A DNA stretch of 64,000 nt from Escherichia coli (GCF_044324785.1 NZ_CP172127.1), one strand, 5' to 3'. Positions 47,285-64,000 are shown, counted from the stretch's first letter. The notes: generated from the sequence alone by a model not told the origin. Program-made: numbers and translations.

Positions 47285-47452
47285 GTGAATCATCCGTTGA
47301 TTAATCATATATAAATATTATGTATCAATAACTTACATTGACAAACGACGCTACCATTAATCAAAATGACTCACAAGGTCCGAAAAAAAACGCCGGCAAT
47401 GTGCCGACGTTTTGATAAAGAAAGATTTGGCTATTTATTGCACGTTGTTCAT

Positions 47453-48736
47453 TCAGGCTGCCTGGCTAATCCGCGCCAGCTGCTCGAAATAATCCGGAAA
47501 TGTTTTGGCCGTGCATTTGGGATCAAGAATCGTCACTGGTGTATCTGACAACGCCACCAGCGAGAAACACATCGCTATCCGGTGATCATTGTATGTCGCG
47601 ATCTCGGCAAAGTTCAGCTTTTCCGGTGGAGTGATACGAATGTAATCGTGCCCCTCTTCTACTTCCGCACCAACTTTACGCAGTTCTGTTGCCATCGCAA
47701 ACAGGCGATCGGTTTCTTTAACACGCCAGTTATAGATATTGCGCAGCGTGGTGGTGCCTTTTGCAAATAACGCCGCCGTGGCAATGGTCATCGCCGCATC
47801 GGGAATATGGTTCATATCCATATCAATAGCGTTCAGTTCACCACGCGTGCAGGAAATATAATCATCACCCCAGCAAATGGTCGCGCCCATTTTTTCCAGC
47901 ACATCAGCAAAGCGAATATCACCCTGCATACTGTTGCGTCCAATGCCGGTCACTTTTACAGTGCCACCTTTGATTGCTGCTGCTGCCAGGAAGTAAGAAG
48001 CCGAAGATGCATCGCCTTCGACCAAATAAGTACCCGGAGACTGATAAGACTGCCCGCCTTTTACGACAAATTGTTGATAGTGCTGATTTTCAATTTCAAC
48101 ACCAAACGTCTTCATCAGATTGAGTGTGATGTTGATATAAGGTTTAGAAACCAGATCGCCTTTAATACGAATCACCGTATCTTCCGGTGCAAGAGGCGCA
48201 GTCATTAACAGTGCGGTGAGGAACTGGCTGGAAACGGAGCCATCAACGTCAACGTTGCCGCCAGTAAAGCCGCCCTGTAAACGCAATGGCGGATAATTTT
48301 CTTGTTCCAGGTAAGTGATCTTCGCCCCGCCCAGGCGCAGCGCATCCACCAGATGACCAATCGGGCGCTCTTTCATACGCGGCTCACCAGTCAGCACAAT
48401 ATCATTGCTACCCAGACAAAGAGCTGCCGCCAGCGGGCGCATTGCCGTTCCGGCGTTTCCGAGGAACAACTCCAGGGCACCTTCTGCGTGTAATGGACCG
48501 CCGTTACCGATGATTTCGCAACGCGTACGATCGGCTGAAAGCGTATAGCTTACCCCTAACGCTGCTAATGCATTCAGCATATGGCGCACGTCATCGCTAT
48601 CCAGCAGATTGGTTAATACTGTTTTGCCGTGTGCTAATGCCGCCAGCAATAAAGCGCGGTTAGAAACGCTCTTGGAACCGGGCAGATTAATAGTGCCATC
48701 GACACGAGCGATGGGTTGTAACGTCAGGGATTCCAT
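47453..48736 (-). CDS. aroA: 3-phosphoshikimate 1-carboxyvinyltransferase (EPSP synthase)
   Basis: 427 aa beginning [35 protein letters not shown]. Confidence 0.95.
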
Positions 48737-48806
48737 GAACTCAACTCTCTACAACAGAAATAAAAACCCCACAGGCTGGCTGTGGGGATTAAGCAAAATT
48801 TCGGCA

Positions 48807-49895
48807 TTAACCGTGACGGCGTTCGAACTCAACCATGAAGTCTGTCAGCGCTTTAACGCCTTCCAGCGGCATGGCATTATAAATAGACGCGCGCATTCCG
48901 CCGACCACACGGTGACCTTTCAGTGCATGAAGGCCTGCAGCAAAAGACTCTTCAAGGAACAATTTGTCAAGCGCACTGTCCGCCAACTGGAACGGCACGT
49001 TCATCCGCGAACGGTTAGCTTTCGCCACGTCATTGCGGTAGAAATCGCTGTTATCAATCACCCCATACAGCAGTTCTGCTTTTTGCTGATTGATTTTATC
49101 CATTGCAGCTACACCGCCGTTCGCTTTCAGCCATTTAAAGACCAGACCAGACAGATACCAGGCAAATGTCGGCGGCGTGTTAAACATGGAGTCGTTATCG
49201 TTGAGAATGGAATAATCCAGAATCGACGGACACGCGATATTCGCTTTGCCCAGCAAATCTTCACGAACGATGACGATTGTCAGGCCAGCCGGGCCGATAT
49301 TTTTCTGCGCGCCAGCGTAAATTACACCATAACGGCTGACGTCAATCGGACGGGAAAGAATGGTTGAAGAGAAGTCGGCGGCGACCACCACATCTTTGCC
49401 GAAGTCTGGCGTTTCGTCGATAGCGATACCGTCGATGGTTTCATTCGGGCAGTAATGCATATAAGCAGCATTATCAGAGAGTTGCCATTCACGCATTGGT
49501 TTAACCGCGCGCAGACCATCAACAGTCACTTTGGCGTCAAAGACATTAGGCGTGCAGTATTTTTTCGCTTCTTTAATGGCACTTGCCGCCCAGTAACCGG
49601 CATCAACATAATCTGCAGTGGTTTTATCACCGAGAATATTCAGCGGAACAGCAGCAAACTGACCGCGACCGCCGCCATGGCAGAACAATACTTTGTAGTT
49701 GGAGGGGACATTAAGAAGATCGCGAAAATCCTTCTCGGCTTCCTCTGCAACCTGAATGAACTCTTTGCCACGGTGACTCACTTCCATCACCGACGTACCA
49801 AGACCGTTCCAGTCGCGCAGTTCCTGTTGAGCCTGTTTAAGCACCTCTGCCGGTAGCATTGCCGGACCAGAACTAAAATTGAAGATTTGAGCCAT
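48807..49895 (-). CDS. serC: phosphoserine aminotransferase
   Basis: 362 aa beginning [33 protein letters not shown]. Confidence 0.95.
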
Positions 49896-50093
49896 TTCCC
49901 CTCACCACGTTGCGTTGCTATTAACCCGCGGTCAATCGATTGCGACCACAGGTAATACATTATTCCTGTGGCTATCGGTTTTATCATTCAGTGACACACA
50001 TCGCAATGAGTAAAACCGTTGAGGGCAAAAATGTGGCTTGCATCACACAAAAGAATCTCTCGGATTATTAGCAAAAAGCCGATGTTTTTACTG

Positions 50094-50786
50094 TCAGGTC
50101 ACCCGTTTTGCCCGACTTGCCTTCGTCCATTCTGGATTTGCACAGCGCGGACATAATTGTTTTTCCCCCGCGTTCATATGAATGATTTCACTGCAACGAA
50201 TGCAGGCATAGTCCGCCGACTCGGGTACCACTTTGTAACGCTGAGTACAGTCACTGGGTAAAATAAGTAAGCCCGGTTTCACCTTGTCATCTTCAAAGAA
50301 ATAGACACTGATTTGCCCGTTGGTTTCGAGAATCGCCAGACGTACCTGCCCCAACTGCTCTACACCGCGCAATCGTAGCTCCATAAAGAACTCAAATTCC
50401 GTCATGTTGGAGTTATTGAGTTTTGACCAGGCCAGCTCGCCATCTTCAATAATGACAACCGGCTTACCTTCCAGAAGATCTTCCAGTTTTTCACTGTGCG
50501 CCATCAACCACATTACCAGTCGGTATAACAACGCCAGAGTAATAAAGACGATAAGTACCGGGACCATCGGCACATCATCATAAAACGCCACATCTCCCGC
50601 CGCTGATCCCAGCGTCAGAATGATTAACACTTCAAAAAGCGACATCTGCCGCACACCGCGTCTTCCGGTCATTTTGAGGAACAAAAAAACCAGTACAAAG
50701 GTATACAGACTACGTAGTGCCACTTCGCCAAGGAAATCAAAAGGCACTTTATCAAATGCCATACGGTGGAGATCGAACGCCTTCAT
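50094..50786 (-). CDS. ycaP: DUF421-family inner membrane protein YcaP
   Basis: 230-aa ORF with N-terminal TM segments; divergent to ycaO. Confidence 0.8.
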   Translation of the reverse strand: MKAFDLHRMAFDKVPFDFLGEVALRSLYTFVLVFLFLKMTGRRGVRQMSLFEVLIILTLGSAAGDVAFYDDVPMVPVLIVFITLALLYRLVMWLMAHSEKLEDLLEGKPVVIIEDGELAWSKLNNSNMTEFEFFMELRLRGVEQLGQVRLAILETNGQISVYFFEDDKVKPGLLILPSDCTQRYKVVPESADYACIRCSEIIHMNAGEKQLCPRCANPEWTKASRAKRVT

Positions 50787-50915
50787 TTTTATGCTCTTAT
50801 CGTAGTTTATCCACTAAAAGCATAGTCAACAGTTCATCGGCATGGCGGCGGTGATAGCGCCTTTGAGATAAAACCCGTATTATTGCGCGCTTTCCGTACG
50901 ACTAAAGTGATTTTC

Positions 50916-52676
50916 ATGACGCAAACATTTATCCCCGGCAAAGATGCCGCTCTGGAAGATTCCATCGCTCGCTTCCAGCAAAAACTTTCAGACCTCGGTT
51001 TTCAGATTGAAGAGGCCTCCTGGCTGAATCCCGTGCCTAACGTCTGGTCTGTACATATTCGCGACAAAGAGTGCGCACTGTGTTTTACCAACGGTAAAGG
51101 CGCAACCAAGAAAGCGGCGCTGGCTTCTGCACTCGGTGAATATTTCGAGCGTCTCTCAACCAACTACTTTTTTGCTGATTTCTGGCTGGGCGAAACCATC
51201 GCCAACGGTCCATTTGTGCATTATCCCAACGAAAAATGGTTCCCACTGACCGAAAATGACGATGTGCCAGAAGGGCTGCTCGATGACCGTCTGCGCGCAT
51301 TTTACGATCCGGAGAATGAATTGACCGGCAGTATGCTGATTGACCTGCAATCTGGTAACGAAGATCGTGGTATTTGCGGCCTGCCGTTTACGCGTCAGTC
51401 CGACAATCAGATCGTTTATATTCCGATGAATATCATTGGTAACCTGTACGTTTCTAACGGTATGTCCGCTGGCAATACCCGCAACGAAGCACGCGTTCAG
51501 GGGTTGTCCGAAGTTTTCGAACGCTACGTGAAAAACCGCATTATTGCTGAAAGCATCAGCTTGCCGGAAATCCCGGCAGACGTGCTGGCGCGTTACCCAG
51601 CGGTGGTTGAAGCCATCGAAACGCTGGAAGCAGAAGGTTTCCCAATCTTTGCTTATGATGGTTCGCTTGGCGGCCAGTATCCGGTGATTTGCGTGGTACT
51701 GTTCAATCCTGCTAACGGTACCTGCTTTGCCTCTTTCGGTGCGCATCCTGATTTTGGCGTAGCACTGGAACGTACCGTGACCGAGCTGCTGCAAGGTCGT
51801 GGCCTGAAAGATTTGGATGTGTTTACTCCGCCAACCTTCGATGATGAAGAAGTTGCTGAACATACCAACCTCGAAACGCACTTTATCGATTCCAGCGGTT
51901 TAATCTCCTGGGACCTGTTCAAGCAGGATGCCGATTATCCGTTTGTGGACTGGAATTTCTCCGGCACTACGGAAGAAGAGTTTGCTACGCTGATGGCTAT
52001 CTTCAACAAAGAAGATAAAGAAGTTTATATTGCCGATTACGAGCATCTGGGCGTTTATGCTTGCCGTATTATTGTGCCTGGCATGTCCGATATTTATCCG
52101 GCTGAAGATCTGTGGCTGGCGAATAACAGTATGGGCAGCCATTTACGTGAAACGATTCTTTCGTTACCAGGCAGCGAGTGGGAAAAAGAAGATTACCTGA
52201 ACCTTATCGAGCAACTGGATGAAGAAGGTTTTGATGACTTTACTCGCGTGCGTGAGCTGTTGGGTCTGGCGACCGGGTCGGATAACGGTTGGTACACCCT
52301 GCGTATCGGAGAATTAAAAGCCATGCTGGCGCTGGCTGGTGGCGATCTGGAACAGGCTCTGGTCTGGACCGAATGGACGATGGAGTTTAACTCATCAGTA
52401 TTTAGTCCGGAACGCGCCAACTATTATCGCTGCCTGCAAACGTTGTTATTACTGGCGCAGGAAGAAGATCGCCAGCCGCTGCAATATCTGAATGCGTTTG
52501 TTCGCATGTACGGCGCAGATGCCGTGGAAGCCGCCAGTGCGGCAATGAGCGGCGAAGCGGCGTTTTATGGCTTGCAACCAGTAGATAGCGATCTGCACGC
52601 GTTTGCTGCACATCAGTCGTTGTTGAAGGCCTACGAAAAGCTGCAGCGCGCCAAAGCAGCATTCTGGGCAAAATAA
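50916..52676 (+). CDS. ycaO: YcaO-domain protein (ribosomal protein S12 methylthiolation accessory factor)
   Basis: 586 aa from the ATG at 50916 (MTQTFIPGKDAALEDS); YcaO superfamily namesake; ORF-track start over-extended. Confidence 0.9.
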   Translation: MTQTFIPGKDAALEDSIARFQQKLSDLGFQIEEASWLNPVPNVWSVHIRDKECALCFTNGKGATKKAALASALGEYFERLSTNYFFADFWLGETIANGPFVHYPNEKWFPLTENDDVPEGLLDDRLRAFYDPENELTGSMLIDLQSGNEDRGICGLPFTRQSDNQIVYIPMNIIGNLYVSNGMSAGNTRNEARVQGLSEVFERYVKNRIIAESISLPEIPADVLARYPAVVEAIETLEAEGFPIFAYDGSLGGQYPVICVVLFNPANGTCFASFGAHPDFGVALERTVTELLQGRGLKDLDVFTPPTFDDEEVAEHTNLETHFIDSSGLISWDLFKQDADYPFVDWNFSGTTEEEFATLMAIFNKEDKEVYIADYEHLGVYACRIIVPGMSDIYPAEDLWLANNSMGSHLRETILSLPGSEWEKEDYLNLIEQLDEEGFDDFTRVRELLGLATGSDNGWYTLRIGELKAMLALAGGDLEQALVWTEWTMEFNSSVFSPERANYYRCLQTLLLLAQEEDRQPLQYLNAFVRMYGADAVEAASAAMSGEAAFYGLQPVDSDLHAFAAHQSLLKAYEKLQRAKAAFWAK

Positions 52677-53081
52677 AATCAAATAGCCTACGCAATGTAG
52701 GCTTAATGATTCGTCTGAGTTATATTACGGGGCGTTTTTTTAATGCCCCGCTTTACATATATTTGCATTAATAAAATAATTGTAATTATAAAGTTAAATA
52801 TCGGTAATTTGTATTTAATAAATACGATCGATATTGTTACTTTATTCGCCTGGTGCTCCCTTTTAATTAACTGTTTTAGCGGAGGATGCGGAAAAAATTC
52901 AACTCATTTGTTAATTTTTAAAATTTATTTTTATTTGGATAATCAAATATTTACTCCGTATTTGCATAAAAACCATGCGAGTTACGGGCCTATAAGCCAG
53001 GCGAGATATGATCTATATCAATTTCTCATCTATAATGCTTTGTTAGTATCTCGTCGCCGACTTAATAAAGAGAGAGTTAGT
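52677..53081 (+). promoter_or_regulatory. AT-rich focA-pflB regulatory/leader region
   Basis: About 400 bp of very AT-rich DNA upstream of focA; in E. coli this region carries the multiple FNR/ArcA/IHF-controlled pfl promoters; individual sites not mapped here. Confidence 0.5.
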
Positions 53082-53939
53082 GTGAAAGCTGACAACCCTT
53101 TTGATCTTTTACTTCCTGCAGCAATGGCCAAAGTGGCCGAAGAGGCAGGTGTCTATAAAGCAACGAAACATCCGCTTAAGACTTTCTATCTGGCGATTAC
53201 CGCCGGTGTTTTCATCTCAATCGCATTCGTCTTCTATATCACAGCAACCACTGGCACAGGAACAATGCCCTTCGGCATGGCAAAACTGGTTGGCGGCATT
53301 TGCTTCTCTCTGGGGCTGATTCTTTGTGTTGTCTGCGGAGCCGATCTCTTTACTTCCACAGTGTTGATTGTTGTTGCTAAGGCGAGTGGGCGCATCACCT
53401 GGGGTCAGTTGGCGAAAAACTGGCTAAATGTCTATTTTGGCAACCTGGTCGGCGCACTGCTGTTTGTACTTTTAATGTGGCTTTCCGGCGAGTATATGAC
53501 CGCGAATGGTCAATGGGGACTAAACGTTCTACAAACCGCCGACCACAAAGTGCACCATACTTTTATTGAGGCCGTCTGTCTTGGTATCCTGGCAAACCTG
53601 ATGGTATGTCTGGCAGTATGGATGAGTTATTCTGGCCGCAGCCTGATGGATAAAGCGTTCATTATGGTGCTGCCGGTCGCGATGTTTGTTGCCAGCGGTT
53701 TTGAGCACAGTATCGCAAACATGTTTATGATCCCGATGGGTATTGTAATCCGCGACTTCGCATCTCCGGAATTCTGGACCGCTGTCGGTTCTGCACCGGA
53801 AAATTTTTCTCACCTGACCGTGATGAACTTCATCACTGATAACCTGATTCCGGTTACGATCGGTAATATTATCGGCGGTGGTTTGTTGGTTGGGTTGACA
53901 TACTGGGTCATTTACCTGCGTGAAAACGATCACCATTAA
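53082..53939 (+). CDS. focA: formate channel FocA (GTG start)
   Basis: 285 aa from the GTG at 53082 (VKADNPFDLLLPAAMAKV...); the ORF-track 398-aa ORF is an in-frame upstream extension through the AT-rich leader. Confidence 0.9.
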   Translation: MKADNPFDLLLPAAMAKVAEEAGVYKATKHPLKTFYLAITAGVFISIAFVFYITATTGTGTMPFGMAKLVGGICFSLGLILCVVCGADLFTSTVLIVVAKASGRITWGQLAKNWLNVYFGNLVGALLFVLLMWLSGEYMTANGQWGLNVLQTADHKVHHTFIEAVCLGILANLMVCLAVWMSYSGRSLMDKAFIMVLPVAMFVASGFEHSIANMFMIPMGIVIRDFASPEFWTAVGSAPENFSHLTVMNFITDNLIPVTIGNIIGGGLLVGLTYWVIYLRENDHH

Positions 53940-53993
53940 TGGTTGTCGAAGTACGCAGTAAATAAAAAATCCACTTAAGAAGGTAGGTGTTAC

Positions 53994-56276
53994 ATGTCCG
54001 AGCTTAATGAAAAGTTAGCCACAGCCTGGGAAGGTTTTACCAAAGGTGACTGGCAGAATGAAGTAAACGTCCGTGACTTCATTCAGAAAAACTACACTCC
54101 GTACGAGGGTGACGAGTCCTTCCTGGCTGGCGCTACTGAAGCGACCACCACCCTGTGGGACAAAGTAATGGAAGGCGTTAAACTGGAAAACCGCACTCAC
54201 GCGCCAGTTGACTTTGACACCGCTGTTGCTTCCACCATCACCTCTCACGACGCTGGCTACATCAACAAAGCGTTGGAAAAAGTTGTTGGTCTGCAGACTG
54301 AAGCTCCGCTGAAACGTGCTCTTATCCCGTTCGGTGGTATCAAAATGATCGAAGGTTCCTGCAAAGCGTACAACCGCGAACTGGACCCGATGATCAAAAA
54401 AATCTTCACTGAATACCGTAAAACTCACAACCAGGGCGTGTTCGACGTTTACACTCCGGACATCCTGCGTTGCCGTAAATCCGGTGTTCTGACCGGTCTG
54501 CCAGATGCTTATGGCCGTGGTCGTATCATCGGTGACTACCGTCGCGTTGCGCTGTACGGTATCGACTACCTGATGAAAGACAAACTTGCACAGTTCACCT
54601 CTCTGCAGGCTGATCTGGAAAACGGCGTAAACCTGGAACAGACTATCCGTCTGCGCGAAGAAATCGCTGAACAGCACCGCGCTCTGGGTCAGATGAAAGA
54701 AATGGCTGCGAAATACGGCTACGACATCTCTGGTCCGGCTACCAACGCTCAGGAAGCTATCCAGTGGACTTACTTCGGCTACCTGGCTGCTGTTAAGTCT
54801 CAGAACGGTGCTGCAATGTCCTTCGGTCGTACCTCCACCTTCCTGGATGTGTACATCGAACGTGACCTGAAAGCTGGCAAGATCACCGAACAAGAAGCGC
54901 AGGAAATGGTTGACCACCTGGTCATGAAACTGCGTATGGTTCGCTTCCTGCGTACTCCGGAATACGATGAACTGTTCTCTGGCGACCCGATCTGGGCAAC
55001 CGAATCTATCGGTGGTATGGGCCTCGACGGTCGTACCCTGGTTACCAAAAACAGCTTCCGTTTCCTGAACACCCTGTACACCATGGGTCCGTCTCCGGAA
55101 CCGAACATGACCATTCTGTGGTCTGAAAAACTGCCGCTGAACTTCAAGAAATTCGCCGCTAAAGTGTCCATCGACACCTCTTCTCTGCAGTATGAGAACG
55201 ATGACCTGATGCGTCCGGACTTCAACAACGATGACTACGCTATCGCTTGCTGCGTAAGCCCGATGATCGTTGGTAAACAAATGCAGTTCTTCGGTGCGCG
55301 TGCAAACCTGGCGAAAACCATGCTGTACGCAATCAACGGTGGCGTTGACGAAAAACTGAAAATGCAGGTTGGTCCGAAGTCTGAACCGATCAAAGGCGAT
55401 CTCCTGAACTACGATGAAGTGATGGAGCGCATGGATCACTTCATGGACTGGCTGGCTAAACAGTACATCACTGCACTGAACATCATCCACTACATGCACG
55501 ACAAGTACAGCTACGAAGCCTCTCTGATGGCGCTGCACGACCGTGACGTTATCCGCACCATGGCGTGTGGTATCGCTGGTCTGTCCGTTGCTGCTGACTC
55601 CCTGTCTGCAATCAAATATGCGAAAGTTAAACCGATTCGTGACGAAGACGGTCTGGCTATCGACTTCGAAATCGAAGGCGAATACCCGCAGTTTGGTAAC
55701 AACGATCCGCGTGTAGATGACCTGGCTGTTGACCTGGTAGAACGTTTCATGAAGAAAATTCAGAAACTGCACACCTACCGTGACGCAATCCCGACTCAGT
55801 CTGTTCTGACCATCACTTCTAACGTTGTGTATGGTAAGAAAACTGGTAACACCCCAGACGGTCGTCGTGCTGGCGCGCCGTTCGGACCGGGTGCTAACCC
55901 GATGCACGGTCGTGACCAGAAAGGTGCTGTAGCGTCTCTGACTTCCGTTGCTAAACTGCCGTTTGCTTACGCTAAAGATGGTATCTCCTACACCTTCTCT
56001 ATCGTTCCGAACGCACTGGGTAAAGACGACGAAGTTCGTAAGACCAACCTGGCAGGTCTGATGGATGGTTACTTCCACCACGAAGCATCCATCGAAGGTG
56101 GTCAGCACCTGAACGTTAACGTGATGAACCGTGAAATGCTGCTCGACGCGATGGAAAACCCGGAAAAATATCCGCAGCTGACCATCCGTGTATCTGGCTA
56201 CGCAGTACGTTTCAACTCGCTGACTAAAGAACAGCAGCAGGACGTTATTACTCGTACCTTCACTCAATCTATGTAA
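53994..56276 (+). CDS. pflB: pyruvate formate-lyase (formate C-acetyltransferase)
   Basis: 760 aa with C-terminal glycyl-radical motif (RVSGYAVRF). Confidence 0.97.
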
Positions 56277-56317
56277 TTAGATTTGACTGAAATCGTACAG
56301 TAAAAAGCGTACAATAA

Positions 56318-56345
56318 AGGCTCCACGAAAGTGGGGCCTTTTTTA
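56318..56345 (+). terminator. rho-independent terminator downstream of pflB
   Basis: AGGCTCCAC-GAAA-GTGGGGCCT hairpin followed by TTTTTT. Confidence 0.75.
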
Positions 56346-56467
56346 GCACGAGAGCCTTTTTTGTCAGCTATCTATACTTTAATGTGACTGCCAAAACAGA
56401 CTCGACGTAGCCTTCGAGCTGCGCACCAACACGGCCTCAGATGGGCCACATCTGGAGAAACACCGCA

Positions 56468-57208
56468 ATGTCAGTTATTGGTCGCATTCACTCCTTTGAA
56501 TCCTGTGGAACCGTAGACGGCCCGGGTATTCGCTTTATCACCTTTTTCCAGGGCTGCCTGATGCGCTGCCTGTATTGTCATAACCGCGACACCTGGGATA
56601 CGCATGGCGGTAAAGAAGTTACCGTTGAAGATTTAATGAAGGAAGTGGTGACCTATCGCCACTTTATGAACGCTTCCGGCGGCGGCGTTACCGCATCCGG
56701 TGGTGAAGCAATCCTGCAAGCCGAGTTCGTTCGCGACTGGTTCCGCGCCTGCAAAAAAGAAGGCATTCATACCTGTCTGGACACTAACGGTTTTGTTCGT
56801 CGTTACGATCCAGTAATTGATGAACTTCTGGAAGTGACCGACCTGGTAATGCTCGATCTCAAACAGATGAACGACGAAATCCACCAGAATCTGGTAGGCG
56901 TTTCCAACCATCGTACACTCGAGTTTGCTAAATATCTGGCGAACAAAAATGTGAAAGTCTGGATACGTTATGTCGTAGTACCTGGCTGGTCTGACGATGA
57001 CGATTCAGCTCATCGCCTCGGTGAATTTACTCGCGATATGGGTAACGTCGAAAAAATCGAGCTCCTCCCCTACCATGAGTTAGGCAAACATAAGTGGGTG
57101 GCGATGGGCGAAGAGTACAAACTCGACGGTGTGAAACCACCGAAAAAAGAAACCATGGAGCGAGTGAAAGGGATTCTTGAGCAATATGGTCATAAAGTGA
57201 TGTTCTAA
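56468..57208 (+). CDS. pflA: pyruvate formate-lyase activating enzyme (radical SAM)
   Basis: 246 aa from the ATG at 56468 ([23 protein letters not shown]) with the CxxxCxxC radical-SAM cluster motif ([10 protein letters not shown]). Confidence 0.95.
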
Positions 57209-57264
57209 AACATCATGTGCAGGCTGAATTCCGACCTGCCACCCCTTCCTTTAGTAGTAAAAAG

Positions 57265-57300
57265 TAAATCAGCGTTGAGAACATGCTCGACGCTGATTTA
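57265..57300. terminator. hairpin between convergent pflA and the bcsC-like gene
   Basis: Inverted repeat TAAATCAGCG ... CGCTGATTTA around a 16-nt loop; an A-run on the plus-strand 5' side gives a T-run on the minus strand, so it most plausibly terminates the bcsC-like transcript. Confidence 0.4.
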
Positions 57301-57342
57301 CTGGATTTAATTTCCGAGTTTTAACCTTCTGATTCTACCTCA

Positions 57343-60300
57343 TTACCAGTCGGCGTAAGGTATCAGCGGCTGCGGCGGTAAATCCATGTCGCCCTGCCAT
57401 CCGGCGGCGGAATACCGCACGTAGAGCAGGAAATGGCTTGGCGCATAATCTTTCGCCTGCTGGATATCAATCGCCGTGCCGACAAACCAGTTGGACGTGA
57501 CGCGACGCTCAAGTAACGCCCGCGCCGTGTAGCCAAAGCCCTGACTGCTGCCGCCGTCGTTGGTCTGACTGGCGGCATCCTCTTTCCAGTCCGTCGGGAT
57601 CAGGTTCATCAGCGGATAACGCGGCATGGTTTTGGTGCGCGAATGCGACCACGAGCCAGACGCACCCAGCTCCCACGACCAGTTTTCCGTCCGCTCCCGC
57701 CACATCACCGGTATGGCAAACGACAGGTATTCCTGCGGGCTGTAGTAACCGCCCTGACCAAGTGAGTAGCCACTCAGGTCTTTGTCGTAATGCCAGATCA
57801 TATTGTTAAGACCAATGGTCACACGGCGATTATTCTGGTTGATGATCTTATAGTAATAGCCCGTCATCCAGCGCACGCGCCAGTTATCTTCGACATTTTT
57901 ACCGGTTAACTGGTCACCGCTAAGCGATGCCCAGACGCCGTTTGCTTCACCTTTATCGTAGCTCAGGCTTAGCCCCACGCCGTCGGCACGCACGCCGCCC
58001 CATTTTTTCCCGGTATTGCTCGGGGAGTCTTTTTGCCCGCCAAAGGCCAGCAAAGAACTGGAGATGGGCCGACGGTGGGCGTTAACGGTGTAACCCAGCG
58101 GCCCGATATCATCGCTGTAACTGATGCCGCCGACCACATCCACCACGTTGAAGCCCATCGGCGTGGTGCCGATATCCCAGCTCCAGACGTCATTTCGCCA
58201 GCCGACCGCCACGCTGGCACCGGAATCCGACTGGCTGCGGTTGCCGCTACAGTCCTGTAATGTACAGGTGCCCCAGTTGTCATCCCATTTGCCATCGGCA
58301 TTAGTGGAGAAACTGCCGACGTTCATATTGACGAAATCACTGCGAAAGAACATCCGCCCGTCAGAGTACGGCGCATCCACCTGCAACATGGTGGTGTGCG
58401 CTTTCAGATCGGAGTAACCACCGGTGCCGCTCGAACCCCAGTAATCGTGCTCGAGGGTGACGTTAAGATCCTGCTGGCGATAGAGGTCCGCTGCATCGCT
58501 GCGCACGCCGCGTTTCAGCCAGTCATCTTTCTCGTCGTTACGGGTCAGCCGGGTAAAGGTGTCGTTATCCTGCGGACGCGTCGTGGTCACACCGGATGCG
58601 ACCATCGCGTCTTTGTAGGTTTCCAGCGCCTGCGTTGGATCGCCCGCCTGCGCTTCAAACTTCGCACCGTCGCGCAGCACCATCGCGCTTTCCATCGACG
58701 GTGGCTGAGATTTTGCCTGCGGGATCAACTTATTAAACGTCTGCTGCGCCGCTGCGGTATCGCCAAGCTGCGCCTGCGCCAGCGCCACGCGCCGCTGAGT
58801 GTTCAGAGAGGCGTTATCAGTGGCGGGCAGTTTCGCCAGCTGGCTACGTGCCGCCGCTTTGTCACCGGCAGCAATATCCACTTCCGTCAGACCAAGAATG
58901 GCATCGGCGTTAGTTGGCTCCCGCGTCAGGACATTCTGATATGCAGCGCGAGCGGCGGTGTAATCACGTCGTTGTTGCGCCCAGTCAGCCAGCGTGAGGT
59001 CAATACGCGAGGAAGGCGGTTGCTGGCGCAGCATCGCTTCCGCTTCTGCCTCTTTGCCGCTTTCTCGCAGGCGATTAGCGGTTTCCAACACCTGATCGCT
59101 TTGCAGTCGATTAACCAGCTCCTGAATATTGCTGCTCCACTGCGCGCGCGGCAGGCTGTTGATATGCGCCAGCGCCGCTCTGTCCTGGTCATGACCAGAG
59201 AGATACAGCCCGTAAGCGTAAACCTGCTCCGGGTCGTTCGGCTTCTGCTGCGCCAGATTGCGCATTAACGTATCGGCCTGGCTGCGTTGTCCGGCCTGCC
59301 AGAGATCCTGTGAAAGTCGGTAAGTAATCCATACACTGCCGGGGTCCAGCGCCAGTCGCTGGCGCTGAAGTGCTGCTGCCTGCGCCCATTTGCCCTGTTT
59401 TTCCAGCGCTTCGGCCTGCTGTGACAAACGGTCATTTTGCAGGCTGCGTTCGATATCATCAATGCTACGCCGCTGACTGGCAGAGAGCGAGGCGATAAAC
59501 GCTTCAGCCTTTTCTGGCGATTGCTGGCGGTATATATTCGCCAGCCCGCGCACGGCGTTAGTGTTGCCGCTGTCCATACGCAAGGTCTGCTGATAATAAC
59601 GTTCGGCGGCGGGATAATCTTTTCGCGCCATCGCCACATCGCCCAGCCCCAGCACTGCATAGCTGTCGGTGTTATCGACATTACGCGCCTGCTGGAACAG
59701 GCGTTCTGCCCGGTCAGGATTATTGGCTTTCAGCGCAGCATCGCCCTGCTGGATCGCCAGCCAGTAGCGGTTTACTTTCAGGAGACTGTTCCATTTGTCG
59801 TTGTTGCTGCTGTGCGGATCCAGGGCGAGGGCTTTTTCCAGATTCGCCACCGCATTGGCGCGATCGCCTTTCTGAGAATACGCCTGGCCCAGCGCTCCAA
59901 ATATGGCACCAGAGTCAGGATTATCAATATTAAGTATTTTCAACTGACGAATCGCTTCGTTGCGACGGGAGGCAATTTGCGTCATTGCCCCCCAGTATTC
60001 CAGCGCCATTTCGATATCTGGCGGTGCACCGTTAAATAGCTTGTCGTAACTGTCGATAGCCTCTTTATGTCGCCCGGAGATAGCTTGTAAGCGTGCCATT
60101 TGCAGTGCCTGACGCCCCTCAGGCGAAGAAAGTCGCATGGCCGTGCGCGATGCTTTATATATTTTTGAATCAGGAGCGAGCAGGGAAAGTCTGGCAAGTT
60201 GTTTTTGCGCGCCTTCAATATCTCCCTTACGCAGCAGATAGCGAAAACGCGCCGCAACGACATCTGGATTATCAGGTTCCGCCAATTCAAGACGATAAAG

Positions 60301-60450
60301 CGACTGTTCGACCAGATCTTCACGATGAATGTCTTCGCCTAACCGAATCTGCGCCATTAACAGCTTGTGTGCAGTTGGTGTGGCTTTCGCCATCGACATT
60401 ACCGCCAAACCAAGGGATATTGTGAGTAAATTTAGGGTGAATTTGTACAT
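57343..60450 (-). CDS. bcsC: BcsC-like outer membrane polysaccharide export protein (TPR repeats plus C-terminal beta-barrel), 1035 aa
   Basis: Signal peptide; long TPR-rich N-terminal region (repeated A/L/Q/R-rich about 34-aa units); aromatic-rich C-terminal beta-barrel ending PLIPYADW; directly downstream of a BcsB-like gene. Call based on architecture and recalled similarity, not a database search. Confidence 0.75.
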   Translation of the reverse strand: MYKFTLNLLTISLGLAVMSMAKATPTAHKLLMAQIRLGEDIHREDLVEQSLYRLELAEPDNPDVVAARFRYLLRKGDIEGAQKQLARLSLLAPDSKIYKASRTAMRLSSPEGRQALQMARLQAISGRHKEAIDSYDKLFNGAPPDIEMALEYWGAMTQIASRRNEAIRQLKILNIDNPDSGAIFGALGQAYSQKGDRANAVANLEKALALDPHSSNNDKWNSLLKVNRYWLAIQQGDAALKANNPDRAERLFQQARNVDNTDSYAVLGLGDVAMARKDYPAAERYYQQTLRMDSGNTNAVRGLANIYRQQSPEKAEAFIASLSASQRRSIDDIERSLQNDRLSQQAEALEKQGKWAQAAALQRQRLALDPGSVWITYRLSQDLWQAGQRSQADTLMRNLAQQKPNDPEQVYAYGLYLSGHDQDRAALAHINSLPRAQWSSNIQELVNRLQSDQVLETANRLRESGKEAEAEAMLRQQPPSSRIDLTLADWAQQRRDYTAARAAYQNVLTREPTNADAILGLTEVDIAAGDKAAARSQLAKLPATDNASLNTQRRVALAQAQLGDTAAAQQTFNKLIPQAKSQPPSMESAMVLRDGAKFEAQAGDPTQALETYKDAMVASGVTTTRPQDNDTFTRLTRNDEKDDWLKRGVRSDAADLYRQQDLNVTLEHDYWGSSGTGGYSDLKAHTTMLQVDAPYSDGRMFFRSDFVNMNVGSFSTNADGKWDDNWGTCTLQDCSGNRSQSDSGASVAVGWRNDVWSWDIGTTPMGFNVVDVVGGISYSDDIGPLGYTVNAHRRPISSSLLAFGGQKDSPSNTGKKWGGVRADGVGLSLSYDKGEANGVWASLSGDQLTGKNVEDNWRVRWMTGYYYKIINQNNRRVTIGLNNMIWHYDKDLSGYSLGQGGYYSPQEYLSFAIPVMWRERTENWSWELGASGSWSHSRTKTMPRYPLMNLIPTDWKEDAASQTNDGGSSQGFGYTARALLERRVTSNWFVGTAIDIQQAKDYAPSHFLLYVRYSAAGWQGDMDLPPQPLIPYADW

Positions 60451-60562
60451 GCCTGCCTCAATCAGGTGTTAACTCACTTTTTATTAAAAACAGAACGGGC
60501 GCAGCTCCCTGCCTGTATAAAGTCAGGACAGAATGGAGCCGCAAAATAGAAATGATGATGAA

Positions 60563-61166
60563 TTACTGTTGATGAGGGTTCAGACGACGGCGACTAATGT
60601 TACGTAACAGACTCCATACTACCCACGCCAATAGCACCACACTGAGAGTTGCCAGCACTGCCAGTAGAATGGGATGTCTGGCTAACACATATTGCACTCG
60701 TTCAATCCAGGGGAGATGCCCAACGTAATAAGTATCTCCAACTCGTAAACTATTGATGCCAGATTCACGAATAACCGCGACTGAACCAAAAATATTGCCG
60801 CGTTTTGTACTATTAATTAACGCATTGTTGAGTAGCGTATCTCCGCGTGATCCCTCGGACATTAAAGCAATTACGCTGCGTTGGGTATGATATGGAGACT
60901 GAAAACCAACTATCGCCGCCATTGGCAATGGAGAATTTATAGTTGTTTGTATTTCAGGTTTTTGATCGTCGTTATCTGTCATAATTTTGGCGTAATCAGA
61001 GTGTCGTATTGGGCTTTTTACCCAACTTGTTGTTGCCTCAATGAGCAGATTAATTTGCTGATTGTCTGCAAATTCTTGCGGAAGTCTTCCTATTAACAGG
61101 ATATCTGAATCCTTGCCCTGGACAGAACCTATATCATCAGTAATTGTCAGATTAATTGCCGGAGAT
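60563..61166 (-). pseudogene. bcsB: 3' portion of BcsB-like gene (cellulose synthase periplasmic subunit) separated from its 5' portion by IS2
   Basis: Reading frame is open from the IS2 boundary (61166) through the ORF-track ORF 60563..60982 and ends in a C-terminal TM anchor (HPILLAVLATLSVVLLAWVVWSLL); frame is continuous with the 5' part once IS2 plus one TSD copy are removed. Confidence 0.7.
61162..61166. repeat. IS2 target-site duplication GAGAT (copy 1)
   Basis: GAGAT immediately flanks both IS2 termini. Confidence 0.9.
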
Positions 61167-61177
61167 TGGATTTGCCC

Positions 61178-62083
61178 CTATATTTCCAGACACCTGTTAT
61201 CACTTAACCCATTACTGGCCTGCTGCCGCAGATATTCCCGTGGCGAGCGATAACCCAGTGCACTATGCGGATGCCATTCGTTATAATGCTCGAACGCCTC
61301 TGCAAGGTTCTTTGCTGCCGTTAACCCGTCTGGTTTAGGCATGATACTGATGTAGTCACGCTTTATCGTTTTCACGAAGCTCTCTGCTATGCCGTTACTC
61401 TCCGGACTCCGCACCGCCGTGTTCTTCGGTTCAAGCCCCAACATCCGGGCAAACTGCCGTGTTTCATTAGCCCGGTAGCATGAACCATTATCCGTCAGCC
61501 ACTCTACTGGAGACGCCGGAAGCTCGTTGCCGAAGCGGCGTTCCACCGCTCCCAGCATTACGTCCTGTACTGTTTCACTGTCGAAGCCGCCCGTAGTGAC
61601 TGCCCAGTGCAGTGCCTCACGGTCACAGCAGTCCAGCGCGAACGTGACTCGCAGTTTTTCTCCGTTATCACAGCGGAACTCGAACCCGTCAGAGCACCAT
61701 CGTTGATTGCTTTCTTTCACGGCCACTTTGCCAGTATGTGCCCGTTTCGATGGCGGTACAGCGGTTTTTCGCTCAAGCAACAGCGCATTCTGGCGCATGA
61801 TCCGGTAAACACGTTTGGCATTGATCGCAGGCATACCATCAAGTTCGGCCTGTCTGCGAAGCAGCGCCCATACCCGACGATAACCATACGTGGGCAGCTC
61901 TCCGATAACATGGTGTATACGGAGAAGCACATCCGTATCATCTGAGTGACGGCTGCGGCGACCATCTTTCCAGTCATCGGTTCGTCTGAGAATTACGTGC
62001 AACTGCGCACGCGACACCCGGAGACAACGGCTGACTAAGCTTACTCCCCATCCCCGGGCAATAAGGGCGCGTGCGCTATCCAC
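61178..62083 (-). CDS. insD: IS2 transposase OrfB (InsD), DDE integrase domain
   Basis: 301-aa ORF beginning [29 protein letters not shown], with rve-type catalytic region; overlaps insC in the -1 frame as expected for IS3-family frameshifting. Confidence 0.9.
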
Positions 62084-62406
62084 TTTTTTGCACGCCCGTA
62101 TTCAACGGCTTCTTTAAGGAGTTCATTTTCCATCGTTTTTTTGCCGAGCAGGCGCTGGAGTTCTTTAATCTGCTTCATGGCAGCAGCAAGTTCAGAGGCA
62201 GGAACGACCTGCTCTCCTGCGGCCACAGCAGTAAGACTTCCCTCCTGGTATTGCTTGCGCCAGAGAAATAACTGGCTGGCTGCCACACCGTGTTGCCGGG
62301 CAACAAGGGAGACCGTCATTCCCGGTTCAAAACTCTGCTGAACAATAGCGATCTTTTCCTGTGTAGTACGCCGTCTGCGTTTCTCCGGTCCTAAGACATC
62401 AATCAT
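62041..62406 (-). CDS. insC: IS2 OrfA (InsC), helix-turn-helix regulator
   Basis: 121 aa from the ATG at 62406 ([41 protein letters not shown]...); ORF-track start over-extended. Confidence 0.9.
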
Positions 62407-62497
62407 CTGCTCTCCAATGACTAGTCTAAAAACTAGTATTAAGACTATCACTTATTTAAGTGATATTGGTTGTCTGGAGATTCAGGGGGCCAGTCTA

Positions 62498-62502
62498 GAG
62501 AT
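62498..62502. repeat. IS2 target-site duplication GAGAT (copy 2)
   Basis: GAGAT immediately flanks both IS2 termini. Confidence 0.9.
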
Positions 62503-64000
62503 CCAGTTTGAGCACCAATCAGTCCAAGGGTATTTAATAATGTTTCAACTTGCGTTGTGCCAGGATTTTCAGGCATAACCACAACCGTTTCTGATAGATC
62601 GGCCATGCGGCTAAATGGAAAGCCTGAGCTGGCAAAAGCGCGTAAATCTGGCATTGCGATAAAGTGATGGTACTTTGAAAAATCGATAGTGGAATCATCT
62701 GCAATAACCGCATGATTTTTTAGCGACCGGGAAATAATACAGCTATCGGCATCAGAGCGCGGCATTGTATTAACGTACTCAAAATTAAATCGCAATTGAT
62801 TAAGCGCCCCTAACGTCAGCGCAGGAATGTTAATTTCATTATTACCATCCAACAATTCTTGCAATAACGGTAAACGTAACAATAACCTATCAGTAGCAGA
62901 TTGCGGACTCAGCCGGAAAGATTCAAGGTACTGGTTATTAAGGCTGACATCCATGCGTGAACCACCTATCGTTGGCGTGGTATAACGATAGTTAATCTTC
63001 ATCTCACCCCCACGATTACGCAATAGAAAGAGATCAGGTGGCAAATTAAATGAAACATTAATTGCCGCAGACTCCAGGGCACTTGCCTGTAACTGCCCTT
63101 CATAATTTTTAAGCTCTGCGAAAGTTACAGGACGATCAGTGCGTATCCAGTTTGGCGCATCATAAGGTTTACGCGGCAGTAACGGCTTCACGTCATTTAC
63201 GACCACGCTATCGCCGCGAAATAATATATTTCCCTGTGCAAGGCCTTTTGCCGCCTGTAATAAATCTTTATCATCGCGGCCCAAAAGTACCAGCAATTTG
63301 ACAAAGGGATTTTGTGGATGACTGATCATTTTAATAACAGGCGCATTCACCAACGGATGCTCGCGCAGAAAGTCTGGGCGTCTATTGTTCGTGGCAAAGA
63401 CTACTGCATTACTTTCCGGTAACTGGTTATAGAAAACCGGAAATCGGTGACCACGCCAGCCAGATTGCGAACCAAACCACGAAGCGACAATAGCTGATAC
63501 CTGCTGCAAACCAGTCCCAGGAGTACCGGCAAAAACCATCGGCAATGTATTAGGGCGGTTATCTCGCGGATCAAAGAACGGTACAGGAAGATATGAAAGA
63601 TCATTTTTCAAATTGAGTCTCTGAACTACCAGTTCAAGTTCACTGGTACGTCCAATATCAAGCCACAAATTGCCGCTGGTCGGGTTTTCGCAGGCGCTCT
63701 GGTAGTGACTAATTAATTCTAGGCGCAAGCGATTAAAATCCGAAAAATACAATGGGTTAAGAGTTATTTCCGCCAGCGTTTTCTTCCCCAGTTGTTCTTT
63801 GGTAATCGGCAATACCTCCATCAACTCGTCATTAAGATAGACCTTAAGCTGTGACTGGACCGGGATCAGCGACGGTGATGGAGTGTATTCAAGTTTTAGT
63901 TTCGCTTCTGACACTATTTCATCGCTACGCATACCAAACTCAATTTGCCCCTGTGGGTTAACTCCATTCAGGACTATGTTTCCTGGCGCTGGTGCGATTT
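62498..64000 (-). pseudogene. bcsB: 5' portion of BcsB-like gene interrupted by IS2 (runs off the window end)
   Basis: Open minus-strand frame from the window edge to the IS2 boundary; ORF-track protein 62448..63932 (494 aa) is BcsB-like, with its last 16 codons read from IS2 sequence before a stop. Confidence 0.7.

Follow-up and report, generated by a model that had tools for sequence, protein, structure and literature searches.

Introduction

In E. coli K-12 MG1655, bcsQ is annotated as a pseudogene. The lesion is a point mutation in the core bcs operon; its phenotype has been demonstrated, and the absence of cellulose production is attributed to it. The locus described here is likewise a natural single lesion in a bcs operon, but of another kind, an insertion sequence in an accessory operon. 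The sequence analysed is a 64,000-nucleotide stretch of E. coli DNA, hereafter called the window.

Accessory bcsABC clusters of E. coli were described in 2025 in a preprint from the Römling laboratory (Hosseinpourlamardi et al., bioRxiv 10.1101/2025.05.09.653004). It names them "bcs2" and "bcs3", places YliE-like and YliF-like genes next to them and predicts that they are functional; for the chromosomal accessory class, function is a prediction only. It also holds that evolution does not favour a second bcs operon in E. coli, and reports that BcsA3 is approximately 41% identical to BcsA1 and that BcsC clusters concordantly with BcsA. A cluster of the type found in the window resembles these clusters in that it consists of bcsABC only, occupies a non-core chromosomal site and is flanked by CHASE9-EAL (YliE-like) and GAPES2-GGDEF (YliF-like) genes. 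Unlike the clusters of the preprint, that of the window has a bcsB gene interrupted by IS2. The words "insertion", "IS2" and "pflA" do not occur in the main text of the preprint, and its text and supplements contain no pflA, ycaM or IS2 and no strain names or accessions of the loci considered here.

The insertion sequence, like the cluster type, is already known. In the classical IS2 insertions of the gal operon, as in the window, the element lies inside an operon upstream of further cistrons, and Rho-dependent polarity has been documented for gal::IS2 (Yarulin and Gorlenko 1985, as cited in PMC12095673). The event examined here is thus an ordinary one, a known insertion sequence in a known, if rare, gene cluster, which by itself opens no new question. 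What can be established is how cleanly the insertion occurred, which gene it struck and what it is likely to have cost the host.

Results

The window derives from the pepN-mukB-rpsA-aroA-pflB region of the E. coli core genome. One edge of the accessory bcs island is marked by pflA (56468..57208, plus strand), a conserved core-genome neighbour identified from the annotations of strains N3, 06-00048 and MS 21-1. In these three strains, and in an assembly whose locus is referred to below as L007 (GCA_054216615.1), the order is pflA, bcsC-bcsB-bcsA-GGDEF(GAPES2)-EAL(CHASE9), ycaM. In K-12, the site downstream of pflA holds ycaK and ycaN in place of the accessory bcs genes. Of 5426 complete E. coli genomes, 9 have the accessory locus and 5381 have core bcsC; strain N3 carries both the core and the accessory locus. 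The core bcs locus (bcsRQABZC-bcsEFG, beside dppF, yhjV and pdeK) was also considered and was rejected on three grounds: the position beside pflA, the absence of bcsZ, and a BcsB that is 64.6% identical to that of K-12. The interrupted gene is bcsB of a rare accessory bcsABC cluster, not core bcsB, and we read that cluster as horizontally acquired.

Compared with BcsA1, the accessory BcsA is without the N-terminal extension, and its identity is 52.9% over 690 aligned residues, or approximately 42% of the full BcsA1 length of 872, a figure in keeping with that given for BcsA3 in the preprint. By this value and the gene layout, the locus is a putative member of the chromosomal "bcs3" class. The accessory BcsA is 73.4% identical to a plasmid BcsA; the identity of the accessory BcsB to that of the common plasmid-borne version is only about 60%.

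Divergence from N3 was uneven along the window, with approximately 81 mismatches between aroA and pflA (~9.6 kb; window 47394-57000) as against 3 in the 5.7 kb of accessory bcs genes (window 57000-64000). In addition, N3 and MS 21-1 have an IS4 element between ycaL and aroA, which the window does not. Together, the uneven divergence and the IS4 difference suggest that the island and its flank have had different recombination histories.

The accessory bcsB gene is present in two pieces, both on the minus strand. The 5′ fragment (62498..64000; codons ~67-567 of 766) was assigned from the N3 annotation and the NCBIfam BcsB family, and the 3′ fragment (60563..61166; codons ~566-766), which encodes most of domain D4, the amphipathic helix and the transmembrane anchor HPILLAVLATLSVVLLAWVVWSLL, from alignment to the structures 9fmt and 6yg8. 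By the N3 annotation, the gene starts approximately 199 nt past the window end at position 64000, and the ATG at 63932 is internal to bcsB and is not its start codon. The window thus ends inside bcsB; in the sequence-identical loci L007 and L008, and in N3, bcsA directly precedes the gene. The part of BcsB that the window encodes, once restored, scores 1111 bits against the NCBIfam equivalog NF008325 (cut-off 922), with the N-terminal 89 residues missing. For the full-length protein of 766 aa, the first 66 residues, which lie beyond the window, were borrowed from N3. The restored BcsB aligns with the solved E. coli BcsB chains (9fmt, 6yg8) from end to end, the C-terminal anchor included, at 1149 bits. 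Its C-terminal amphipathic helix and single transmembrane anchor (...HPILLAVLATLSVVLLAWVVWSLL...) are encoded downstream of the insertion.

The element that separates the two fragments is an IS2 of exactly 1331 bp (61167..62497, minus strand), whose transposase genes run in the same direction as bcsB; its IRL end is at 62497 and its IRR end at 61167. The termini were read directly as TGGATTTGCCCC... from 61167 and, on the minus strand, TAGACTGGCCCCC... from 62497, and they form the imperfect terminal inverted repeats typical of IS2. Read along the plus strand, the 1331 bp begin with TGGATTTGCCCC... and end with ...GGGGGCCAGTCTA. Both ends are those of K-12 IS2A, the outermost differences lying at positions 88 and 1305. 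The upstream gene, insC (orfA; 62041..62406, minus strand), encodes the 121-aa TnpA repressor; it matches all 121 positions of the profile NF006928 ("IS2 repressor TnpA") at 275.8 bits (cut-off 229), and the protein is identical to K-12 InsC1. The second gene, insD (orfB; 61178..62083, minus strand), encodes the catalytic part of the transposase (301 aa) and covers 301 of 301 positions of NF006918 ("IS2 transposase TnpB") at 706.5 bits (cut-off 597); it is free of internal stops and its product differs from K-12 InsD1 at 11 residues. Within the overlap of the two genes lies an AAAAAAG slippery site (62083..62089, minus strand; IS2 positions 409-415). At such A6G sites in IS2 and the IS3 family, a −1 frameshift generates the InsCD fusion transposase.

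K-12 MG1655 IS2A (381260-382590) and the window element share the two-ORF layout, the A6G frameshift site and a 5-bp target duplication, the flanks being ATTAC/ATTAC for the former and GAGAT/GAGAT for the latter. The two are 95.7% identical, with 57 substitutions and no indels. At full length, the window element is 100% identical to copies, annotated as IS3-family/IS2, that occupy many different positions in numerous E. coli chromosomes and plasmids; unlike K-12 IS2A, it is of the type that recurs at 100% identity in many non-K-12 chromosomes and plasmids. The window IS2 is an intact isoform. Because identical copies occupy many other sites and both proteins match their profiles over the full length, this isoform appears to be currently mobile and competent for transposition.

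The IS2 isoform of the window is 4.3% diverged from K-12 IS2A. Among the 7741 matching records from complete E. coli genomes, the best IS2 match was at least 99% identical in only 1283 and 95-99% identical in 5735. Two identity bands of this kind indicate that at least two IS2 sequence types circulate.

A direct repeat, GAGAT, was read immediately outside each end of the element, at 61162..61166 and at 62498..62502. The chance of a 5-bp flank match alone is 1/1024, but the decisive evidence comes from removal of the element. When 61167-62502 (IS2 and one GAGAT copy) was excised, the minus-strand frame ran for 699 codons without a stop, from the end of the window as far as the terminal stop codon at 60563. 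From position 55000 to its end (7665 bp), the excised window was 100.000% identical, without gaps, to two loci that lack IS2 at this site, L007 and L010 (GCA_044081815.1), an identity that places the insertion beyond chance. The empty sites of N3, L007 and L010 each have a single GAGAT. Relative to the complete genome of N3, only 3 of 5665 positions differ; the single difference in bcsC is synonymous, and the two in bcsB are missense. The exact restored 766-aa BcsB is recorded intact in 17 contigs of other assemblies. The event is a clean, recent and simple IS2 insertion, with nothing else altered across at least 7.6 kb around the site. By the usual transposition pathway of the IS3 family, the active isoform would have entered accessory bcsB at codon ~566-567 and, in doing so, would have duplicated the 5-bp target GAGAT.

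These results agree in all particulars with what an earlier note had read from this DNA. It had described an IS2 of exactly 1331 bp with both termini and both ORFs, which direct reading and the NCBIfam profiles confirm. The perfect GAGAT repeats that it had placed around the element are present, and the host frame is continuous, as it had stated, once IS2 and one repeat are removed. It had also proposed that the insertion was simple and probably recent, a view upheld by the identity of the restored sequence to intact alleles elsewhere. The additional frameshifts or stops that, according to the same note, might have pointed to an older pseudogene are absent from the restored ORF.

One could nevertheless envision that the accessory cluster was already decaying and that IS2 is one lesion among several. 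Such decay would be in keeping with the rarity of the cluster (9 of 5426 complete genomes) and with the argument of the preprint that second bcs operons are not favoured in E. coli, and further lesions might reside in bcsA and the upstream genes, which sit beyond the window. However, neither bcsB nor bcsC contains a frameshift or a stop within the window, and the excised sequence is 100% identical to loci in which all five genes of the accessory cluster were called full-length. For the part inside the window, the identity to intact alleles led us to reject older decay, and for the cluster as a whole we regard it as very unlikely.

A different concern is that the junction was created during assembly. 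IS2 is a multicopy repeat, with a median of 4 matching places per genome, and repeats cause misassemblies, so that a misjoin could have placed the element here. A misjoin does not, however, account for a perfect 5-bp duplication exactly at the element ends, which is the signature of transposition, nor for a contig assembled independently of the window. The latter is a 1329-bp Logan contig from SRR31073010 (2 samples) that opens with 28 nt of the IS2 IRR end fused to exactly this bcsB target. On the strength of the duplication and the independent junction, the artefact was rejected, and we assign it next to no probability. Because the same IRR/target junction occurs in that contig, the filled site is real and is not unique to the assembly of the window.

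The filled site is otherwise scarce. IS2 is absent from this bcsB site in all 5426 complete RefSeq E. coli genomes, and the best coverage of a 7-kb query among them was 81%, which matches the empty site. An exact protein look-up of the 583-aa truncated BcsB predicted from the interrupted gene (see below) returned no records, which is expected if short-read contigs break within IS2. Since the insertion recurs in at least two public read sets, one might propose that it is a selected, lineage-fixed switch-off of the accessory system and not a neutral accident, and that the secreted D1-D3 fragment (567 residues, from a BcsB that overall is 64.6% identical to core BcsB) might also act as a dominant negative, lowering core cellulose output by hindering the core BcsB crown as it assembles. 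We consider this proposal highly improbable.

The insertion falls in codons 566-568 of the 766 codons of bcsB. The truncated ORF continues for 16 codons into IS2 and stops at 62448-62450. Its predicted product of 583 aa would retain the signal peptide and the periplasmic domains D1-D3 and would be without D4, the amphipathic helix and the C-terminal membrane anchor. According to the passages on the BcsB tail in the review PMC8892547, which cites Omadjela et al. 2013 and Morgan et al. 2013, the tail fits a groove of the BcsA transmembrane domain, and cellulose is not polymerised without it. Without the tail that completes its transmembrane channel, the accessory BcsA would be catalytically dead. 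Because the truncated product is without the helix and anchor needed for BcsA activity, loss of function of the accessory BcsB, and with it of the synthase, is strongly inferred. The expectation of the earlier note that the BcsB-like subunit is inactivated thus finds support in the loss of the C-terminal helix and anchor together with the indispensability of the tail.

Downstream of IS2, an ATG-initiated ORF of 139 aa lies in the bcsB frame (60563-60982, minus strand) and encodes the end of D4, the amphipathic helix and the transmembrane anchor. Gene callers report it as a separate small protein, for example on the Logan contig L006. In principle, this ORF could express the anchor-bearing C-terminal piece alone.

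It could therefore be argued that output of the accessory pathway is kept, whether by an anchor supplied in trans from the 139-aa ORF, by substitution of core BcsB for the accessory protein, or by transcription of bcsC from a weak internal promoter. This argument draws on the in-frame ATG that precedes the helix and anchor and on the statement, in the same passages of PMC8892547, that in vitro no part of BcsB other than its C-terminal tail is indispensable; on the 64.6% identity between core and accessory BcsB; and on weak promoter-like sites (8/12 matches) downstream of the element. On the other hand, no strong promoter was found for the 139-aa ORF, its product has no signal peptide of its own so that correct insertion of the anchor is hypothetical, and cross-complementation is speculative given that the BcsA classes are only about 53% identical over the aligned region. 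Retention of output by any of these routes seems to us a very improbable outcome.

The accessory bcsC gene (57343..60450, minus strand), which lies downstream of the insertion and starts 112 nt after the bcsB stop, is intact; it encodes 1035 aa and scores 1899.7 bits against the NCBIfam BcsC profile NF008520. The earlier note had expected the insertion to be polar on this gene. To reach bcsC, transcription would have to cross the 1.3 kb of IS2 and approximately 600 nt of bcsB remnant that is probably untranslated, an arrangement that would invite Rho-dependent polarity. In a consensus scan for promoters and terminators from 60300 to 62700, sites were no more frequent than in shuffled controls, and the gene strand had none. 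With relaxed settings, the gene strand from the IS2 end to bcsC showed no promoter-like site with at least 9/12 matches, nor was a hybrid promoter found at the IRR junction; weak 8/12 matches occur in the bcsB remnant and in the bcsB-bcsC spacer. In a reporter study, the wild-type right end of IS2 had no detectable outward promoter activity (PMC12095673). Because no promoter-like site of 9/12 or better was found downstream and the IS2 right end showed no detectable activity of this kind, reduced transcription of bcsC by polarity is plausible, though less certain than the loss of BcsB. No terminator-like site was found inside IS2 on the gene strand, and read-through from insD is for that reason possible.

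Discussion

As a whole, the locus is very probably explained by a recent and clean hit of IS2 in accessory bcsB, with a presumed loss of BcsB function and with core bcs untouched. The annotation is corrected to a split bcsB pseudogene plus IS2 in the accessory cluster, not in the core operon.

The consequence for the strain is narrower than the consequence for the cluster. The insertion would almost certainly switch off the accessory cluster. The core bcs operon was not touched by the IS2 event, and the insertion probably does not switch off this main operon. The earlier note had called the locus a candidate natural knock-out of cellulose-type exopolysaccharide production. As a candidate knock-out of an accessory pathway, this description stands; as a statement about the cellulose of the strain it goes too far, given that core bcs is a separate locus and that core bcsC is found in 5381 of 5426 genomes. 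A cellulose-negative phenotype of the whole strain is not supported. Core bcs, which nearly all E. coli carry, is not in the window, and unless core bcsA were removed this locus would probably mask a Congo-red or calcofluor phenotype. The insertion does supply a natural matched pair, the IS2-bearing strain and the strains with a sequence-identical empty site (e.g. GCA_054216615.1), for testing whether accessory bcsABC makes a polymer.

A more interesting lead, on the origin of second cellulose operons, is provided by the bcsC mosaic of the chromosome together with the bcsZ′-bcsC arrangement of plasmids. By sliding identity to K-12 bcsC, the accessory gene falls into a 5′ part of ~530 nt at 65-75% and a 3′ part of ~2.6 kb at about 88-100%, where most values lie between 95% and 99%. 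After the 5′ part, the alignment with core bcsC has a gap of 366 nt (122 aa, in the TPR region), and by blastp residues 165-1035 of the accessory BcsC are 96.9% identical to residues 287-1157 of the K-12 protein. In its sequence, accessory bcsC is a mosaic with core bcsC, whereas the preprint finds BcsC concordant with BcsA; its accessible text (10.1101/2025.05.09.653004) does not describe such a mosaic.

The bcsC allele of MS 21-1 has the same length and architecture, and its 3′ part is only about 87% identical to both the K-12 and the window allele. Because MS 21-1 shares the architecture while its 3′ part diverges, the comparison suggests an old, possibly ancestral, bcsC fusion, after which individual lineages underwent separate gene conversion with their resident core bcsC.

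Six of eight empty-site contigs (L008, L009 and L011-L014, all from draft assemblies) end in the core-like 3′ part of accessory bcsC, at positions equivalent to ~58200-59340 of the window. Such ends are expected if the same genomes carry a near-identical core bcsC, which would cause short reads to collapse.

On the plasmid pLH13-b-B (L005, NZ_CP100527.1, 11119-22041), the bcsA and bcsB genes of an accessory cluster, which is of the bcs2 type, belong to another class than those of the window locus, the BcsB being approximately 60% identical to that of the window. After bcsA and bcsB come a group II intron reverse transcriptase gene, an IS200/IS605 tnpA gene, a bcsZ remnant and a full-length bcsC of the core type. 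From this gene content, the core bcsC of the plasmid appears to have been captured from a chromosome. The encoded BcsC has 99.2% amino acid identity to K-12 BcsC, and IS2-like and IS1 elements adjoin the gene.
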